DNA from: Eledone cirrhosa
Lineage: Eukaryota
Length of the DNA: 64,000 bases
Direction: 5' to 3'
NCBI GenBank assembly: GCA_964016885.1
Contig: OZ024741.1
Location: forward strand, 148,614,001 to 148,678,000
The stretch's first letter is position 1. Every line of letters starts with the position of its first letter. Shown in pieces: positions 7,439 to 63,054 of the stretch. Position numbers and translations under genes: made by a program. Below the pieces are notes generated by a model, which did no database searches, was not told the origin of the DNA, and saw only the letters and a program-made list of their open reading frames with translations.

Positions 7439-8794
7439 TTGGGTTGGCCAAAAAATACGTTCCTTTTTTGTCAATACATTCTAATATCCCTTAAGCATGT
7501 GCACTCGTTAGATACTTGGCACGTCATCATAGTCCAACATGAACTTCTGTTGAGACAGGTTGTCTTTTGTGTGCTTGGTATCATCCTGAAAATGGAGAAA
7601 CAAAACAAAACTTTATCGACACCTCATCCTTTTTTATTTAAAAAAAGATAGGAATATGACCGAAACCTGCAGGAAGATATGTGCTGTGTACGGAGAGGAT
7701 GGTATTATGTGACGTGTGTGCCAGAAGTGGTTTTCAAGATTTCCATTGGGAAATTTTCGGTTCAAGATGCGCCTTGCTCTGGCTGGCCAACTGAGATGAA
7801 CGAGTTAGGCGACACTAACCCCCGTTATATGACCAGAATGATTGCAGATATTCTCCAAATATCCAAATTGAATGTTGAAAACCATCTGCATCAACTTGGT
7901 TACATCAGCAGGCTTGATGTTTGTGTTCAACATTAAGTGAATGAGGTTAATCATGCCCAATGGATTTCCATCCACGATTCTTTGCAGAAATATGAAGAAA
8001 ACAATGCTTTCAATTTGGTGGAATTGGATGGGTGTTGTCTTTTAAGAACTTCTTCCAATCTGAATGTGACCAAAAGACAAATTAAATGCTGTGATTCACC
8101 AGAAGTGCCCAGCACTTGCTAATTGTAAGAGCACACACTTCTTTTGCAAATGCAGTTACAGTGGCTTGACAGGGAAGTTTTGTCGCACCCTGCATATTTA
8201 TCCAACCTTGTGCCTTCAGACTTCCACCTGTTCAGTCATTTAAAAATTCATTGGAGGCACATGGCTTAGTGGTTAGATCATTGACCTTGCAATCGAAAGG
8301 TTGTGAGTTCAATTCTCACACCGGGTGATGTGTTGTTTCCTTGAGCAAGACACTTTATTTCACATTGCTCCAGTTTACTCAGCTGTAGAAATGAGATGAT
8401 AGGGACTGGGGTCCCTATCAATCCACTGTAAAGTGGACGTGTAGGTGCCACGGAAAAAAAGCACCCAGCACTCACTGTAAATGAAGTTGGTGTTAGGAAG
8501 GGCATCCAGCTGTAAAAATCATGCCAGAATCAGTTCCCGTCCCACCCTTGTAAGCAGGGAAAATCGGACGTAAAATGAAATGATGATGATTGAATGGAAA
8601 GACCTTAAACTTTGAAAAGGATGTAAAAATTCACTTGGAAGGGATTCTTTGAGCAGGGAATAATGGATTTGCCAACAAGATGGCAGATGATACTGGCACG
8701 AAACTGTAATTCTTGATTGAATAAATTGCTTTGTGTTTAAAATTTGTGTCTTATTTTTGCATAAAAAAACGAACAAACTTTTTGGCCAATCCAA
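7439..8794 (+). mobile_element. Decayed mariner DNA transposon, interrupted by a SINE
   Basis: TIRs TTGGGTTGGCCAAAA / TTTTGGCCAATCCAA with TA at the left. Transposase remnants include ICAVYGED, FSVQDAPCSGWP, HLHQLGYISRLDVCVQH (WVPH motif decayed) and HPAYLSNLVPSDFHLF (YSPDLAPSD-like). Confidence 0.9.
8253..8590 (+). mobile_element. tRNA-derived CORE-like SINE with RTE-derived 3' tail
   Basis: Head GGAGGCACATGGCTTAGTGG..GAGTTCAATTC, CORE-like CCTTGAGCAAGACACTT..CAGCTGTAGAAATGAG, tail GGTGTTAGGAAGGGCATCCAGCTGT..GGACGTAAAA(TGA)n shared with the RTE. Inserted into the mariner ORF. Confidence 0.9.
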
Positions 8795-9752: not shown

Positions 9753-9984
9753 TATATATATATATATATATATATAGGGGCAGAGCATGCACCTATATAT
9801 ACAGAAACTGCAGAAGCCCATCAAATATATATATGTGTCCTTACCTGCCTTTATGTCTCATAACTTTGCCGTTTGACAAAAAAGTGATCAATAAAATAAG
9901 TATTGGTGTGGATATGATCGACTAAATCATGGTGGTGCCCCAGCTTAGCTGCAGTCTAATGACTGAAACAAGTAAAAAGACTTA

Positions 9985-10261
9985 TGATGTGTTGTTTCCT
10001 TGAGCAAGACACTTTATTTCACATTGCTCCAGTTTACTCAGCTGTAGAAATGAGATGATAGGGACTGGGGTCCCTATCATTCCACTGCAAAGTGGTCGTG
10101 GAGGCGCCACGACAAAAAAGCACCCAGCACTCACTGTAAATGAGGTTGGTGTTAGGAAGGGCATCCAGCTGTAGAAACCAAGCCAGAATCAGTTCCCGTC
10201 CCACCCTTGCAAGCAGGGAAAATCGGACGTAAAATGATGATGATGATGATGATGATGATGA
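9985..10261 (+). mobile_element. 5'-truncated CORE-like SINE with RTE tail
   Basis: Near-identical to the body and tail of 8253-8590, with a (GAT)n end. Confidence 0.9.
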
Positions 10262-10846
10262 TACATACACACACAAACAACAGCTGTTTTGTGTCAGTAT
10301 AGGATTAAAGGTTAATTCATTATTATTAAAACATAATGAAGATCTTTACTACCAACTTTTATTTAGTTGATGATAATGATTTATTTCATAGTTGTATTTG
10401 CTGATTTGAGAACATGTCTTGAAACTTAAAACAATAACGTAAGAGTAATTTTAACCATTAAAAAAAAATGCAGAAATATATTAGTTTTCATGACCACATA
10501 TCTAATAAATTACATTTTAATTAATTAATAAATAATTTTGAGGGATTTGCTAAAATTATTAATTAATTCCCAAGATAGTAACTTATGGTTCTTATGTAAA
10601 ATTATGTATGAAGATTTTAATTTAAATAGGAACCCTTTAAAATGGGTGGTTTTGTTTCATAGAACCAGAGCCAGGTTGGCATCAAATGGGTTGATTTCAG
10701 TTTACTTATTTGTTCAGTTTTTGACACCAGGAAATAAATAATAAATGTAAAGTGAATTTAACAATTTTGTTTTAATGATGGAAATGACTCTTTCACAAGA
10801 TATTTATTTCACTGTTTTAAATATTTTATTATAATTATTTAAAGGA

Positions 10847-24310: not shown

Positions 24311-25747
24311 TCATCATCATCATCATCATCAACGTTTAACGTCCGTGTTCCACGCTTGCATGGGTTTGGACGGGGGTAGTCCCACTTGAGGCAAGAGTGA
24401 TTGTCTTGCTCGCATAGGACTGTCTGGCAGGTTTTCTACAGTTGGATGCCCTTCCTAACACCAACCACATTTACAGTGTGGGTCTGGGAGGTTTTTACCG
24501 TGTTGCCTACACGGCCACATTACAGCGTGGACTGTGTGTTTTTTTGTCGTGACACCTACACGATCTCATTTGTTTCGGCCTCGAAGGCGCGGCACCAACA
24601 TAACTTTACATAGAACGGGGTGGTGTGGATCGGGTGGGGGTGGGGGTGGTGGGACGGGGTGTATTTTGTTAGAGATGCCTACTGGCTGGAGTAGGTTTTA
24701 CTATATATTTAGGTAAGGCGGGTCTTCTCTGTTACTGAGTACCGCCAAAGGTCTCGGTCCAGTGACATTGTCTTGGAGAGGTGTAAGTGTGTGATGTCGG
24801 AGTTTATCAGCTCGTCCCAGGTTTTTCTAGGTCTGCCTATTCCGTGACTACCGTCTATCTTTATTGCCCTGCACTTTGTTATACAGCTATCGACTTTCAT
24901 GCGCATCACGTGTCCATACCAACGTAGCCTTCTCTCGAGTAAACAACATCTGATCCCTCTTATCTCTAATTTTTTCCTTAGTTCGTTTATGCTTTGCTGT
25001 TCACGTATATTACTGTTACACATCCAGCGGAGCATGCAAGCTTCGTTCCTCTCTAGTCTGCGTATATCCTCTGCACACAATGCCCAGGTCTCACTGCCAT
25101 GCAGCATTGCTGTTCGTATGCAGGCATCGTACAACCTGCCTTTCATTTTTAGTGAGAACCCTTTAGCAGCTAATAGTGGTATAAGCTCTCTGAACTTTTT
25201 CCAACCAGTTCTGACTCTAGCTACAGTACTTTCAGAGCACCCTCCCCCACTGCTGATTTTATCGCCCAGGTAACGGAAGCTGTCCACTATTTCTATAGAA
25301 CCCTCTGCGCAATTGAAAGAGCTAGTAGTTTGTGGGCACTTGCTGCTACTTATTGCACCAGAGCACCGGCCACATGTAAAATCTATGTTCTTAGTTAGCT
25401 TACCTGTGATCCCACTACATCTTTTATGCACCCATACTTTGCATTTAGGACATAAAATGGAGTTTCTACCTACGCCTTTCCTACACACCGAGCACGACCA
25501 TTTCCCAGAAGGGACCGCCGCCTTGTTTTCTTTCCTACAAACTAGCACTTTGGTCTTAGCCAGGTTAATTTTAAGTCCTTTTGACTCTAGGCCGTGCTTC
25601 CATGTTTGGAATTTCTTCTCTAGCTCGCCATTGATTCCGCTATGAGTGTCAGGTCGTCTGCGTATAGGAGTTCCCATGGGCAGCCTGTCTTGAACTCCTC
25701 TGTTATAGCCTGAAGGGCAATAATAAATAGTAGTGGACTGAGAACAG
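24311..25747 (-). mobile_element. 5'-truncated RTE LINE
   Basis: [19 protein letters not shown] insert, C-terminus ending EKTRLT*, and a 3'UTR with GGACGTTAAACGTTGATGATG. Confidence 0.95.
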
Positions 25748-38745: not shown

Positions 38746-39086
38746 AAAATACACCCCCGTCCCACCACCCCCACCTCATCCACACCGGCCCCTTTGTAAA
38801 GTTATGTTGGTGCCACACCATCCAGGCCGAAACAAATGAGATCGTGTAGGTGTCACGACAAAAAAACACACAGTCCACGCTGTAATGTGGCCGTGTAGGC
38901 AACACGGTAAAAACCTCCCAGACCCACACTGTAAATGTGGTTGGTGTTAGGAAGGGCATCCAACTGTAGAAAACCTGCCAGACAGTCCTATGCGAGCAAG
39001 TCAATCACTCTTGCCTCAAGTGGGACAACCCCCGTCCAAACCCATGCAAGCGTGGAACACGGACGTTAAACGTTGATGATGATGAT
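38746..39086 (+). mobile_element. RTE LINE 3'UTR-only insertion
   Basis: Matches the RTE 3'UTR and ends GGACGTTAAACGTTGATGATG. Confidence 0.92.
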
Positions 39087-39191
39087 GTATATGTATATGT
39101 ATATATATATATATATGTATATGTATATATATATGTATATATATATGTATATATATATGTATATATATGTATATATATATGTATATATATG

Positions 39192-39227
<36 letters not shown>

Positions 39228-39297
39228 TGTATGTATATATATATATATGTATATATATATGTATATATATATGTATATATATATGTATATATATATG

Positions 39298-39328
<31 letters not shown>

Positions 39329-39347
39329 GTATATATATATATATATA

Positions 39348-42300
39348 TCATCATCATCATCAACATTTAACGTCCGTGTTCCACGCTTGCATGGGTTTGG
39401 ACGGGGGTAGTCCCACTTGAGGCAAGAGTGATTGTCTTGCTCGCATAGGACTGTCTGGCAGGTTTTCTACAGTTGGATGCCCTTCCTAACACCAACCACA
39501 TTTACAGTGTGTGTCTGGGAGGTTTTTACCGTGTTGCCTACACGGCCACATTACAGCGTGGACTGTGTGTTTTTTTTGTCGTGACACCTACACGATCTCA
39601 TTTGTTTCGGCCTGGATGGCGCGGCACCAACATAACTTTACATAGAACGGGGTGGTGTGGATGGGGGGGGGTGTATTTTGTTAGAGATGCCTACTGGCAA
39701 GGCGGGTCTTCTCTGTTACTGAGTACCGCCAAAGGTCTCGGTCCAGTGACATTGTCTTGGAGAGGTGTAAGTGTGTGAGGTCGGAGTTTATCAGCTCATC
39801 CCATGTTTTTCTAGGTCTGCCTATTCCGTGGCTACCGTCTATCTTTATTGCACTTTGTTATACAGCTATCGACTTTCATGCGCATGACGTGTCCATACCA
39901 ACGCAGCCTTCTCTCGAGTAAACAACATCTGATCCCTCTTATCTCTAATTTTTTCCTTAGGTCGTTTATGCTTTGCCGTTCACGTATATTACTGTTACAC
40001 ATCCAGCGGAGCATGCAAGCTTCGTTCCTCTCTAGTCTGCGTATATCCTCTGCACACAATGCCCAGGTCTCACTACCATGCAACATTGCTGTTCGTATGC
40101 AGGCATCGTACAACCTGCCTTTCATTTTTAGGGAGAACCCTTTAGCAGCTAATAGTGGTATAAGCTCTCTGAACTTTTTCCAACCAGTTCTGACTCTAGC
40201 TACAGTACTTTCAGAGCACCCTCCCCCACTGCCGATTTTATCGCCCAGGTAACGGAAGCTGTCCACTATTTCTATAGAACCCTCTGCGCAATTGAAAGAG
40301 CTAGTATTTTGTGGGCACTTGCTGCTACTTATTGCACCAGAACACCGGCCACATGTAAAATCTATGTTCTTAGTTAGCTTACCTGTGATCCCACTACATC
40401 TTTTATGCACCCATACTTTGCATTTAGGACATAAAATGGAGTTTCTACCTACGCCTTTCCTACACACCGAGCAGAAGGGACCGCCGCCTTGTTTTCTTTC
40501 CTACAAACTAGAACTTTGGTCTTAGCCAGGTTAATTTTAGGTCCTTTTGACTCTAGGCCGTGCTTCCATGTTTGGAATTTCTTCTCTAGCTCGGCCATTG
40601 ATTCCGCTATGAGTGTCAGGTCGTCTGCGTATAGGAGTTCCCATGGGCAGCCTGTCTTGAACTCCTCTGTTATAGCCTGAAGGGCAATAATAAATAGTAG
40701 GGGGCTGAGAACAGAGCCCTGATGGACGCCAACTTTTACGCTAAACTCTTCACTATATTCGTTGTTAATTCTAACCTTGCTGACTGTTTCTTTATACATG
40801 ACTTGAATAGCTTTCACAAGCCATTCATCAACACGTAGTTTTCTAAGCGCCCACCAGATAATGGAGCGGGGGACTCTGTCAAAGGCTTTCTCCAAGTCAA
40901 CAAAAGCTAAGTATAGGGGTTTACTTTTAGCTAGGTACTGCTCCTGTAGTTGTCGTACAATGTAAAGAGCGTCTGTGGTACTCTTTTTTACCTGACACAA
41001 ACCCGAACTGCATTTCATTTAGATCAATTCTCTCTCTGATTAGTTGTGGTATTACTTTTTCTGTGACCTTCATGACCTGGTCGATTAATTTAATGCCTCT
41101 ATAGTAACCCCTATCTAGGCCATCTCCTTTACCCTTGTAGCAGTTAATGATGATGCTGCTACGCCAGTCCTTCGGAACGACCCAATTCTGTAAGATTTGG
41201 TTTACTATCCGGGTGATCATAGTGTGTCCCACCATTCCAGATGCTTTCAGCATTTCAGCAACTATTTCCGAAGGCCCAGCCGCCTTACCCGTCTTCATAT
41301 CTTTGCTTGCCTTACTTATACTACCTTCAACTAGCACTGCTGGTACCTCTATTGGATCGATGTGGGGGAGACTGTCTTTCTCCCATTTATTCTCCTCATT
41401 TAGTAGCCTTTCGTAGTGACACTTCCAAGCTACCTTCTTATCAGCGTCAGTCATGGCAAGTACACCATCATCATTAAGGACACACTTCTCCCCGACAATA
41501 TCACGGTTTTCCTTGACACATTGCCTACCAATCCTGAACACCACACATTTTTGGTCCGCGCGTTGTAGAACATACTTGAACTTTCTTTCCTCTGCTTCCC
41601 TTCTTGCGAAGTACACTTGTCTCCTAGCTTCCCTCCTGGCCACTTGATAGTCTTCTCTACTTCCCCCATCCCGCCATACTTTCCAAGCCTGCTTTTTGGC
41701 CTTAATTGACTCCTCCACCCACCACCACGTTACTCTCCTCCTGCTTACAAGCCTGCTCCAGCCACAGACTTCATCTGCCGCCTTCAGCAGGTTGGCTTTC
41801 AGGAATTCCCACTGTTCCTCTATATTGTACGACTCTAATTGCTCTTCCTTACTGTCGAAAGCATCAAGTAATATGCTTTTAAATTTATTACTGGCTGTGG
41901 GGTCCTTTAACTTCCATATTTTTCTCCTGAGGATAGTCCTCCTCAGTTGTCGAGTACGTTTTGTCCTGACTATGAGGTCGCTGACTATGAGTCTATGTTG
42001 GGAGGTGCATTTTTCATGGGGGAGGGATTTAGTGTTTACAACAGACACTCTATCACGTCTTCTGGTAAGGATATAATCTGACTGGCGTGTTCCCCTGATA
42101 TATAGGTGATCAAGTGATTGTCTTGTTTTTTGAAGTTAGTGTTACAGATAGTTAGGTTATTTGCATCACAGAATTCCAGGATTCTGGAGCCTTCCTCATT
42201 TCTAGTACCAAACCCATAGCGTCCATGGATTCCGCCATAGCCGTCACAATGTTGTCCAACGTGACCATTTAGGTTGCCAGCAATAATTATGTAGTCACTG

Positions 42301-43460
42301 TCGGTTATTTGGGAGGTAGTGAGCATCAATGTCTCATACAATCTGTCTTTTATAGCGCCAGGCAGTCTGGATTGGGGTGCATACGCAGATATTACTGTCA
42401 CAGTAGTTCTATTTAGGACAAGTCTTATTTTAATTATTCTGTCGTTCACTCTATTTACGTCTATTATCTTATCTACCCATTTTTCTGCTAACATGATTCC
42501 TACTCCACCCAGCCCATTGTCATTTCCCACCCACAAAAGCTTATAGCATCGTTTTTTACCCACAATGAATCTAGCAGACCCACTCCTCCACCTGGTCTCT
42601 TGGATACAGCAAACATCAACCTGCTTACGTTCAAGCATTTCTACAACCTCGTTAGAGCGATCTTTTAAGGTGCCTACATTCATGGTACCAACTCTGAAGT
42701 TTTGGATTGCGTTTGGTGGGTGGGAATGGTGGGGCGGGGGGATGGGGATTGGGTTGGGGTTATTTTGGCCATCCACGGCCGAAACAAAGAGGAGGAGTCC
42801 TTGCCTTTTCGTCCGGCAGCATGAGGTGAATTTGTCTTTATCTTTGGCATTGTCACTGAGTGTCCACATTTTTCAGACTCTCCAGAATTCCTTAGTCCAT
42901 CCATCATATCGAAAAGCAACCAGGAGAAGTGATAGCATAAGCCGCTGACTTATGATTGGTCCAAATAATAATGGTGGAGAGTGGGGGCAGGTGGGAGGGG
43001 TATGGGGTAGTTAGCGAGAGGGTTTAAATAAAATCCTCGAATTTTGGGCATAAATGGACAAGCATATAACAGTAATAAGCAAATAATGGGATTTTAAAAT
43101 ACAAGAAGATTATTTAGAACAACCAGACAGAATTATAGAATAGCATTGAGAAAGAGCAAAGATTGGATTCTGGACGATGATACGGATATATGAATGAATG
43201 GACCGAGAGAATGGAGAGACAAGAAAAAATGGCATTTTACATTACATTTCGCAGGAGAGCGAGCAGGTCTGGCCATTAATAAGTGTTGACAAATTCTGAG
43301 ATTTGTACCTCGTAACAGGTTTATTTATATTTGGTGAGAGAAGGGTGTGATTGAAAGAGTGAACCAGCAGGCGTGTATACAATATAAGGGGGAAGGAGTA
43401 AAGATTAAGAGGGACAAGGGAGGCCATTTTATAAATCCTAGAATTTTCGGCCACAATTAA
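39348..43460 (-). mobile_element. Near full-length RTE-clade LINE (APE endonuclease, RT, PHD insert), frameshifted
   Basis: 42036-42869 APE (GTMNVGTL, CIQETRW, ISAYAPQ, GNLNGHVG, RNEEG); 40927-42048 linker; 40449-41018 RT (LEKAFD, GVHQGSVLSP, YADD); 39832-40467 C-terminus. The 5' boundary is uncertain. Confidence 0.95.
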
Positions 43461-43509
43461 ACAAACGAGATTGTTATTTTAGAAAAACAAATGGGGCATT
43501 TTACGTTAA

Positions 43510-44232: not shown

Positions 44233-44295
44233 AAGTATATATATATATATATATGTGTAAGTATATATATATATATATATATGTAAGTATATATA

Positions 44296-44333
<38 letters not shown>

Positions 44334-44336
<3 letters not shown>

Positions 44337-44656
44337 TAATCATCATCATCATTTCATTTTACGTCCGCTTTTCCCTGCTTGCAAGGGTGGGACGGGAACT
44401 GATTCTGGCTTGATTTCTACAGCTGGATGCCCTTCCTAACACCAACCTCATTTACAGTGAGTGCTGGGTGCTTTTTTGCCATGGCACCTCCACGACCACT
44501 TTACAGTGGAATGATATGGACCCTAGTCCCTATCACCTCATTTCTACAGCTGAGTAAACTGGAGCAATGTGAAATAAAGTGTCTTGCTCAAGGAAACAAC
44601 ACATCACCCGGTCTGAGAATTGAACTCACAACCTTTTGATTGCAAGGCCAATGCTC
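44334..44656 (-). mobile_element. CORE-like SINE with RTE tail
   Basis: Reverse complement of the 8253/46791 family. Confidence 0.9.
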
Positions 44657-46790: not shown

Positions 46791-47141
46791 GGAGGCACAT
46801 GGCTTAGTGGTTAGAGCATTGGCCTTGCAATCGAAAGGTTGTGAGTTCAATTCTCAGACCGTGTGATGTGTTGTTTTCTTGAGCAAGAGACTTTATTTCA
46901 CATTGCTCCAGTTTACTCAGCTGTAGAAATGAGATGATAGGGACAGGGGTCCCTATCATTCCACTGCAAAGTGGTCGTGGAGGTGCCACGGCAATAAAGC
47001 ACCCAGCACTCACTGTAAATGAGGTTGGTGTTAGGAAGGGCATCCAGCTGTAGAAATCAAGCCAGAATCAGTTCCCGTCCCACCCTTGCAAGCAGGGAAA
47101 AAGCGGACATAAAATGAAATGATGATGAAATGATGATGATG
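46791..47141 (+). mobile_element. Full-length CORE-like SINE with RTE tail
   Basis: Complete tRNA head, core and (GAT)n tail. Confidence 0.92.
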
Positions 47142-47184
<43 letters not shown>

Positions 47185-47188
<4 letters not shown>

Positions 47189-48058
47189 ATTATGATAGAT
47201 TAATAAATGAGGAGAATGCATAGATTACTAAATGAGAAGAGACCCTACCCCAAGTAGACCCTATAGAGGGACCAGCAGTACAAGTCAGCAGCAGCCTAGT
47301 AAGTAAGGCAATCAAAGATATGAAGGCAACCGGTCCATCGGGTATAGCTACCGAGATGCTGAAGGCATCTGGGTCTGTAGGTCACACTATAACCACACAT
47401 ATCGTTAACCAGGTAATACTAGAAGGTGCCATACCAAAAGATTGGTACCATACCAAAAGAAGGTAAAGGCGATGCACTAGATAGAGGAAACTATAGAGGT
47501 ATAAAGTTGATGGACCAGGTTATGAAAGTAACAGAAAGAGTTATAGCACAGCTAATTAGGGACTGGGTGAAAATAGACGAGATGCAATTTGGGTTTGTAC
47601 CAGGAAGAGGCACCACTGATGCCCTCTTCCTTGTCAGGAAGCTTAATTTGCATATCGAGTGAGTTAATCGGCCGAGGTAACAAAATCGATAAACGGAAAA
47701 AATGAAACAAAATTTAATTTCTCACTCTTAGTACGGCTGTTACTTAAATATAAGTATGTATACGTACATACATATATGTATACTGCTGGCTCCTCTATAG
47801 GGTCTACTTGGGGTAGGGTCTCTTCTTCCCATGCATTCTCCTCATTTAGTAATCTATCATAATGACTCTTCCATGCATCTTTCTTCTCGGCACTTGTGAG
47901 GGCAAGCTCACCTTTATCATTCCGGATACACTTCTCTCCAATGACATGACAATTCTCTCTGACACACTGCCTCGCAATCTCCTGTTTTTGGTCCTCATGT
48001 TGCAAAGCATGCTTGAATTTTCTATCCTCTGCTTCCCTCCTAGCTAAGTATACTTGTC

Positions 48059-62799: not shown

Positions 62800-63037
62800 T
62801 CATCATCAACGTTTAACGTCTGTGTTCCACGCTTGCATGGGTTTGGACGGGGGTATTCCCACTTGAAGCAAGAGTGATTGTCTTGCTCGCATAGGACTGT
62901 CTGGCAGGTTTTCTACAGTTGGATGCCCTTCCTAACACCAACCACATTTACAGTGTGGGTCTGGGAGGTTTTTACTGTGTTCCCTACATGGCCACATTAC
63001 AGCGTGGACTGTGTTTTTTTTGTCGTGACACCTACAC
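62800..63037 (-). mobile_element. RTE LINE 3'UTR-only insertion
   Basis: Matches 39348-39593. Confidence 0.92.
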
Positions 63038-63054
63038 GTATATATATATGTATA

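Follow-up and report, generated by a model that had tools for sequence, protein, structure and literature searches.

Do the two ends of a LINE transcript pair with each other, and what would such pairing do? The question is raised by a copy of an RTE-type long interspersed nuclear element (LINE) in the genome of Eledone cirrhosa, located in a stretch of 64,000 nucleotides (nt) of contig OZ024741.1 (positions 148,614,001 to 148,678,000; hereafter the window). In a preliminary description of this stretch, two complementary segments near the ends of the element were reported and circularisation of its RNA was proposed. In related copies of the element, the two arms were found to covary. The pairing of the arms is probably selected, and the arms are likely to close the LINE RNA into a loop through a selected helix of about 31 bp.

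The window copy is full-length and extends on the minus strand from approximately 43505 down to a (GAT)n tail at 39347 to 39361, in a genome of 3.0 Gb. The helix joins positions 42759 to 42792 (5′ arm, minus strand, helix positions 1 to 34), which are coding and lie upstream of the endonuclease, with positions 39596 to 39636 (3′ arm, minus strand, positions 1 to 41) within the 3′ untranslated region (UTR). The 5′ arm encodes SLFRPRMANIT in the N-terminal extension of the family. Both arms were re-found in the window sequence as reverse complements with two single bulges. The 8+12+3 bp reported initially are present, yet the helix of the family is longer, as a 7-nt bulge is followed by some 11 additional pairs. 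In lineages A, Y and B, 32 pairs are possible, interrupted by a single bulge, a small internal loop and the 7-nt bulge. In A and Y the duplex energy is about −39 to −45 kcal/mol, and in B it is −37 kcal/mol.

The 5′ partner had been correctly placed before the endonuclease, whereas its distance from the start codon required correction. The arm starts 58 nt past the AUG of the MPK... reading (42848 to 42850, minus strand) or about 115 nt past two other in-frame AUGs at 42907 and 42904, all of which are candidate starts. Of 51 copies, 38 have the AUG at 42850 in the reading frame of the endonuclease. At position 42764 the window copy carries a private C>A change, which costs one pair (C in 39 of 40 aligned 5′ ends). 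Because this change is private to the window copy, the CAAAAUA motif described beside both arms is partly an artefact.

For the window copy alone, the complementarity was borderline by shuffling. When the first 500 and the last 500 nt were dinucleotide-shuffled, the score was reached in 1 out of 2,000 cases. In shuffles of the whole element it was reached in 8 out of 150, which would fit a chance complementarity inherited with the family. That both arms have non-pairing homologues in family C fits this explanation as well. The comparison of sublineages, given below, leaves it largely refuted and hardly credible.

The genome searches scored the best 40 candidates each, and the lineage sets are therefore samples. 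Copies of lineage A are about 96% alike, and those of Y and B represent young lineages. A0a and A0b, their older sisters, have an open reading frame (ORF) identity to the others of 93–95% and 86–90%, respectively. E, C1 and C2 are more distant and have the plan of the 5′- and 3′-UTR in common with them. Family C2 is as young as any family examined, its copies being 99% identical to each other, and family D is a separate, young family with the ordinary RTE layout. The trees gave C, E, then (A0b,(A0a,(A,(Y,B)))). The window copy itself is a chimera according to an identity scan, belonging to sublineage A 5′ of position ~40,800 and matching sublineage B at 99% 3′ of it (approximate junction at 40750 to 40900). 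The 5′ arm was found in the family majority, and the other window copies bear the 3′ arm as described previously.

For the pair counts, 60 full-length copies of five sublineages (A0b, A0a, A, Y and B) were used. Copies lacking the 3′ anchor motif were left out (4 of 30 in A, 2 of 20 in Y), and the A0b rows for pairs 30 to 34 were not counted, since this segment is missing in A0b and its alignment is an artefact. Four pairs, numbered by the position in the 5′ and then in the 3′ arm, were altered on both sides with Watson-Crick pairing kept, so that the search for compensatory changes proposed in the preliminary description gave a positive result. Pair 8-33 is A-U in 7/7 A0a and 4/5 A0b copies, and G-C in 24/26 A, 18/18 Y and 4/4 B copies. 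Pair 12-29 is A-U in 6/7 A0a copies and C-G in 24/26 A and 18/18 Y copies. Pair 33-2 is G-C in 7/7 A0a copies and A-U in 24/26 A and 18/18 Y copies. Pair 15-26 passed from A-U (4/5 A0b) through a C.U mismatch (6/7 A0a, 22/26 A) to C-G (18/18 Y, 4/4 B); its 5′ side changed first and its 3′ side one lineage later. With A0b as the outgroup, the covariation events are distributed over three or more branches.

A0a and A differ at three sites of the 41-nt 3′ arm, and each of these differences is matched by a restoring one in the 5′ arm. The probability of this was 9.4e-4 by position alone and 1e-5 to 6e-5 when estimated from the flank divergence. The 5′ bases of pairs 8 and 12 had been predicted from the A0a 3′ arm before any A0a 5′ end was known. 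They were present in 7/7 and 6/7 of the seven full-length A0a copies recovered, and the third pair, which had not been predicted, was also swapped (7/7). A genome-wide count of the predicted A0a 13-mer showed no enrichment (108 matches against 90 for the control), such matches being informative only after pairing with A0a 3′ ends. The A0a 5′ arm pairs with its own 3′ arm at −31.3 kcal/mol, compared to −22.3 kcal/mol with the A arm. The codon changes behind pairs 8 and 12, which are two of the three 5′ changes, are synonymous, and protein constraint is therefore no explanation for them. Between A and Y, only one of the 34 sites of the 5′ arm changed, compared to 29 of 139 in the upstream flank. 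In contigs from sequencing runs, the element and identical 3′-arm variants were present, the linkage from arm to arm being beyond their reach.

Chance inheritance is hard to reconcile with the compensation of all three changes, two of which had been predicted beforehand. It is likewise opposed by simulation: among 20,000 random mutants of A0b with the observed number of changes, none reached the stability of Y, and 1.5% kept the stability of A0b. In the reverse simulation, 42% of the Y mutants were still as stable as A0b.

Matched changes in two arms could also arise from templated mutation instead of selection. Here the reverse transcriptase (RT) would switch from the 5′ arm to the finished complementary DNA (cDNA) of the 3′ arm and copy a few bases, with the pairing as a by-product. 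The differences between A0a and A are dense in the 5′ arm (5/34) compared to the upstream flank (5/150), as such copying would predict, yet the nearby downstream C-rich tract is similarly rich in differences (7/58). Chimeras and tandem re-priming junctions, which are common in the family, also speak for it. However, bulges and mismatches persist beside the changed pairs, so that the copied tracts would have to comprise only a few bases per event. The stepwise change of pair 15-26, 5′ side first, is the opposite of copying from 3′ cDNA, and genomic copies with 3′ arms intermediate between A0a and A exist. Templated mutation is considered quite improbable.

The selected helix was further assessed by its energetics. 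The duplex energy in windows was better than that of 40/40 shuffles in Y (z −5.9), A (z −3.5) and B (z −2.5). After subtraction of the cost of opening local structure, the net helix energy was −18 to −22 kcal/mol in Y, −9 kcal/mol in A and −7.5 kcal/mol in B. Folding of two strands predicted the helix in Y and A, and the minimum-energy fold of the 3,767-nt Y RNA contains the whole helix. Full-length minimum-energy folds of such long RNA are unreliable, and the support obtained from them is not uniform.

A number of observations weigh against a selected helix. The shuffle comparison of duplex energy, which had been suggested as a check and is passed in Y, A and B, fails in A0a (30 of 40 and 9 of 40) and in A0b (24 of 40 and 21 of 40), although the 45-nt windows may clip the helix in A0a. 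A0a has a net energy of about 0 and A0b one of −3 to −4 kcal/mol, two-strand folding gave no helix in A0a, A0b and B, and the helix is missing from three of the four full-length minimum-energy folds, namely those of the window copy, one A copy and one A0a copy. At the level of single pairs, pair 22-20 is C.A in 5/7 A0a copies and pair 14-27 is broken in 4/4 B copies; in A0b the final five pairs are missing and a 2x1 loop is present. At least 8 loci, and also window position 24566, carry a recurrent variant by which pair 19-23 is disrupted; none of the six copies with this variant that were extended reached the 5′ arm. In addition, 5′ arms of lineage A pair better with the 3′ arms of Y and B than with their own. 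The evidence from covariation consists of four pairs, seen in five sublineages that are related and belong to a single genome.

Two further observations are suggestive at most as signs of pairing in vivo. The first concerns truncated copies starting at the base of the helix. Among the first 100 of 1,147 pattern matches, 26 loci were found, of which 2 were dropped as rearranged. By hand count, the start of 14 of the 24 loci kept falls between −1 and +6 relative to the helix base and that of 7 within the helix, and 6 of the 14 lie at TA microhomology. Other copies starting at the helix base comprise two true truncations and one tandem-junction group (4 copies, possibly one event), in a list that contains duplicates. 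One truncated copy in the window (62807 to 63038, minus strand) has as its first base the first base past the 3′ arm. The second sign is an excess of A>G changes, which make up 5 of 16 polarised arm changes (8 of about 21 when the A0b branch is included) compared to 32 of 188 in the whole element by hand count.

This excess bears on the possibility that the pairing is selected for another use, namely RNA stability, dimerisation of two RNAs or double-strand RNA pathways such as ADAR editing. The covariation is equally compatible with intra- and intermolecular pairing and to that extent accommodates these uses. However, the A>G excess is small, and selection for stronger pairs predicts the same. 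An apparent A>G excess among private changes (8 of 722 A sites) was mostly due to a Y2 sublineage variant counted as private. Another use of this kind is regarded as rather unlikely.

In addition, there are tandem duplications within the 3′-UTR whose junction coincides with the base directly following the 3′ arm or lies 25 nt beyond it (loci L045, L046, L049 and L439; L029, L104, L157, L320 and L364). They possibly arose by re-priming of the RT or were inherited.

How far does the helix extend beyond these sublineages? By windowed duplex energy against shuffles, no helix was found in E, C1, C2 and D. The C copies have none either, the one strong match (L152) being an adjacent inverted fragment. 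Among 79 metagenome loci, the eight full-length outgroup RTEs lack the helix in 8/8 cases, since 84 to 481 of 500 shuffles reached or exceeded the observed score. The comparison set consists of these outgroups and the families of this genome. The long-range pairing proposed initially is thus supported by covariation, whereas its extension to RTE elements in general was rejected. Judging from the sequences compared, the helix is an innovation of one lineage and not RTE-wide.

Both C2 and D consist of very young copies without the helix. C2 carries the relocated domain discussed below and has 99%-identical copies in which no helix was detectable, a further point against the selected helix. The helix is therefore dispensable outside its own lineage and not required for the relocated-domain architecture. 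The preliminary description had also argued from the absence of the arm in a SINE (short interspersed nuclear element) that borrows the RTE tail. The arm is indeed absent from the four window SINE copies inspected, but the argument has no weight, because these SINEs appear to derive from other families with a C2-like unit and a D-like tail. By inspection, the SINE-like family at 8350 to 8620, 9950 to 10350, 44270 to 44620 and 46850 to 47200 has an RTE part resembling the C2 unit joined to a D-type tail.

Family D contains a separate 15-nt complement with one bulge (L070 and L165), located about 12 nt past the first AUG and at the last codons of the ORF. It was matched by 0/500 and 1/500 shuffles by alignment score and by 5/40 by windowed energy. 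An older D copy (L459) carries two uncompensated 5′ changes in it, and this complement may be due to chance.

The origin of the arms is connected to the position of a conserved domain. Its core is found in the 3′-UTR, and never in the 5′-UTR, of A0b, A0a, A, Y, B, C and E, whereas it lies in the 5′-UTR of D and of 7/8 outgroups. The 3′ domain consists of 2 to 4 tandem units ahead of the terminal stem-loop in A0 to B, C1, C2 and E (window 39475 to 39595; compare the 5′ region of L070, and L213 to L246). In the window copy, this segment (39475 to 39595, minus strand) comprises two repeat units and the domain core at 39475 to 39499. The clade with the relocated domain also has a new 5′-UTR in common, including a motif at 42953 to 42961 (minus strand) that is found in lineages A, Y, A0, C and E and that we take to be CCAAT-box-like.

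The 3′ arm aligns, including its bulges, to the repeat unit of C2 (5/2000 shuffles) and of C1 (50/2000), and is likely a degenerate copy of this unit of about 48 nt. The region of the 5′ arm aligns to the syntenic region of C1 (3/2000 shuffles). These alignments are modest. A formation of the 3′ arm as an inverted duplication of the 5′ arm was considered and is disfavoured: neither arm looks like an inverted copy of the other, because each aligns to its own pre-existing counterpart. The source of the 3′ arm seems to have been a copy of the domain that was moved from the 5′-UTR to the 3′-UTR. A weak chance complementarity that was retained and later tightened is the likelier history.

A conserved RTE 5′-UTR domain and bipartite RTE-derived SINEs have been described (Kojima, 2018; PMC5786205; PMC7245038). 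From its position, the relocated motif would correspond to this domain; a text search of the supplement of Kojima for the motif gave no match. The order of the 3′-UTR, a 5′-UTR-type domain followed by the RTE tail, is like that of the bipartite elements of Kojima, and the layout looks like the capture of such a bipartite unit. In contrast to those elements, the unit here ends an autonomous ORF, and the available text of PMC5786205 mentions no 5′–3′ pairing.

By inspection, a small local hairpin lies in the first 40 nt past the end of the ORF in A, E, C1 and C2 (e.g., L042, L143 and L345), and its changes from family to family appear compensatory. Half of it is deleted in sublineage B.

What might such a helix do? 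It remains an open question how a LINE RNA turns from mRNA to template, and how an element without poly(A) attains cis-preference. The functions proposed initially, namely control of translation, cis-preference and template positioning for target-primed reverse transcription, are putative. The helix may be a switch between translation and use as a template for reverse transcription, a reading that we hold tentatively. The open form would be translated, and the closed, ribosome-free form would be used for reverse transcription. Ribosomes on the ORF, which includes the 5′ arm, would have to melt the helix, and only full-length RNA that is not being translated would then retain it. Because each arm is predicted to have a local alternative hairpin, competition between the two states would be expected; the broken pair of B appears, by folding prediction, to strengthen the local hairpin of this sublineage. 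The closed state would set the start of the ORF beside the 3′ module of relocated domain and terminal stem-loop, the expected site of protein loading.

Alternatively, a selected helix may act as a delivery bridge, which returns the relocated domain to the start of the ORF and thereby promotes translation or protein loading. The distribution of the domain core, given above, speaks for such a function. The domain follows the 3′ arm immediately, from the first base on, and therefore leaves the helix on the AUG side. In A0a, the 5′ arm is predicted to pair locally with bases just after the AUG (0.63–0.83 per nt), and blocking of the arm lifts the unpaired fraction of these bases from 0.34–0.44 to 0.74–0.81. 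Ribozyme-like 5′ regions of RTE elements have been proposed as aids of translation initiation (PMC6765202, which cites the RTE ribozyme paper of Ruminski, 2011). However, C1, C2 and E have the relocated domain without the helix, C2 being very young, and the function of the domain is putative. The pairing next to the AUG was seen only in A0a and in 2/3 A0b copies, with values of 0.00–0.08 in A, Y and B, and an AUG-occluding hairpin was therefore rejected as a conserved switch. A delivery bridge is somewhat unlikely.

Should the switch between translation and template be correct, the LINE may have evolved a virus-like cyclisation switch de novo and recently. A spare copy of the relocated domain would have been reshaped as a partner of the ORF start and tightened by successive master lineages, with the steps recorded in dead copies. 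This scenario is conceivable, with somewhat less than an even chance. Of the properties of known cyclisation elements, complementary segments near both ends and pairing kept by compensatory change were found, the latter with two sublineage-level mismatches. Conservation across a wider group was not found among the families and outgroups compared.

Ty1 is a long terminal repeat (LTR) element primed by a transfer RNA, and its cyclisation serves strand transfer. The LINE uses target-primed reverse transcription without a strand-transfer step. The CYC5 and CYC3 genome cyclisation sites of Ty1 are similar to the arms in that complementary sites are located near both ends of a retroelement RNA and the 5′ site has local alternative partners (PMC7969010). 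The CYC pairing has genetic support, whereas the RTE helix is known from covariation.

In flaviviruses, circularisation inhibits translation initiation (PMC6765113). The flaviviral CS/UAR elements are comparable to the arms, with an end-to-end helix near the start codon, rival local hairpins and an RNA without poly(A) that serves both ribosome and polymerase (PMC6765113). They differ in that they belong to a virus with an RNA polymerase and are conserved genus-wide, whereas the RTE helix is a single one of about 31 bp in one young LINE lineage and its function is putative. The 3′ cap-independent translation enhancers of plant viruses (PMC4820102) also combine a structured 3′ module with an adjoining sequence that pairs with the 5′ region. 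Binding of initiation factors by the RTE domain, in contrast, would be hypothetical, and its sister families carry the 3′ domain but not the bridge. In R2, both RNA ends take part in retrotransposition, yet protein binds each end and the available text of PMC6765202 describes no direct base pairing between them.

The literature on long-range pairing, cyclisation and covariation in RTE, LINE and other non-LTR elements, searched with most subscription journals outside the search, contained no case of end-to-end pairing in a LINE. A paper on an octopus RTE (PMC9115989) describes a different-looking element and, in its available text, no RNA structure. End-to-end pairing is already known in LTR elements and RNA viruses, and no precedent was found for the LINE case. 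Such pairing answers the problem of mRNA versus template in flaviviruses and Ty1. The lineage described here offers a 31-bp target with natural compensatory variants for disruption and rescue, and its dated series of sublineages documents how a long-range helix arose and was tuned. The 5′- and 3′-UTRs of RTE elements are used in RNA-based gene-writing systems (PMC13708176), for which a rule of end-to-end pairing could matter.

The remaining parts of the window element (39347 to 43505, minus strand, a full-length frameshifted LINE) were delimited as follows. Its 5′ end was set at 43505 by alignment of the family 5′ ends. Between the 5′ arm and the endonuclease lies a C-rich coding tract (42702 to 42758, minus strand), which is a source of frameshifts among copies. 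The coding region for endonuclease, RT and PHD domain (39832 to 42701, minus strand; Pfam matches) is split over four frames. It is followed by a C-rich tract of the 3′-UTR directly before the 3′ arm (39648 to 39676, minus strand), and the element ends in a terminal stem-loop-like segment with the (GAT)n tail (39347 to 39405, minus strand), adjoining a (TA)n tract. A related B copy has an open frame of 1060 amino acids with matches to Exo_endo_phos, RVT_1 and PHD.

From this architecture, the element presumably belongs to the RTE clade. A single ORF with an apurinic/apyrimidinic endonuclease and, after it, a reverse transcriptase was found in the B copy, and the 3′ end consists of short tandem repeats, (GAT)n, without poly(A). 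A conserved domain in the 5′-UTR, typical according to PMC5786205, is not found there in the helix lineage, as its core sits in the 3′-UTR. This placement marks a variant RTE architecture. The closest database proteins show at most 53% identity and are almost all unnamed. Rfam covariance models, including those of ribozymes resembling that of hepatitis delta virus, gave matches below threshold at three loci (two A, one D), almost all to microRNA models and none at the gathering score.

A short 3′ copy bearing a Y-type 3′ arm (38766 to 39075, plus strand) lies tail to tail with the main element, and the two form an inverted repeat of about 300 bp across the (TA)n tract (38766 to 39375). At L116:4450-5000, a long, near-perfect inverted repeat is formed by two 3′-UTR copies joined head to head.

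Pieces resembling Y/B (compared with L124:1250-5000) with few differences were found in contigs of sequencing runs X5 to X10, which carry other organism labels. Their source may be related species, horizontal spread or contamination. In X5 and X6, a different and very abundant SINE body adjoins the shared core.

At their 5′ ends, A copies often show partial tandem repetition of a unit of about 500 bp (window 43002 to 43505; L035, L037, L048 and L068), an arrangement reminiscent of the promoter monomers of rodent L1.

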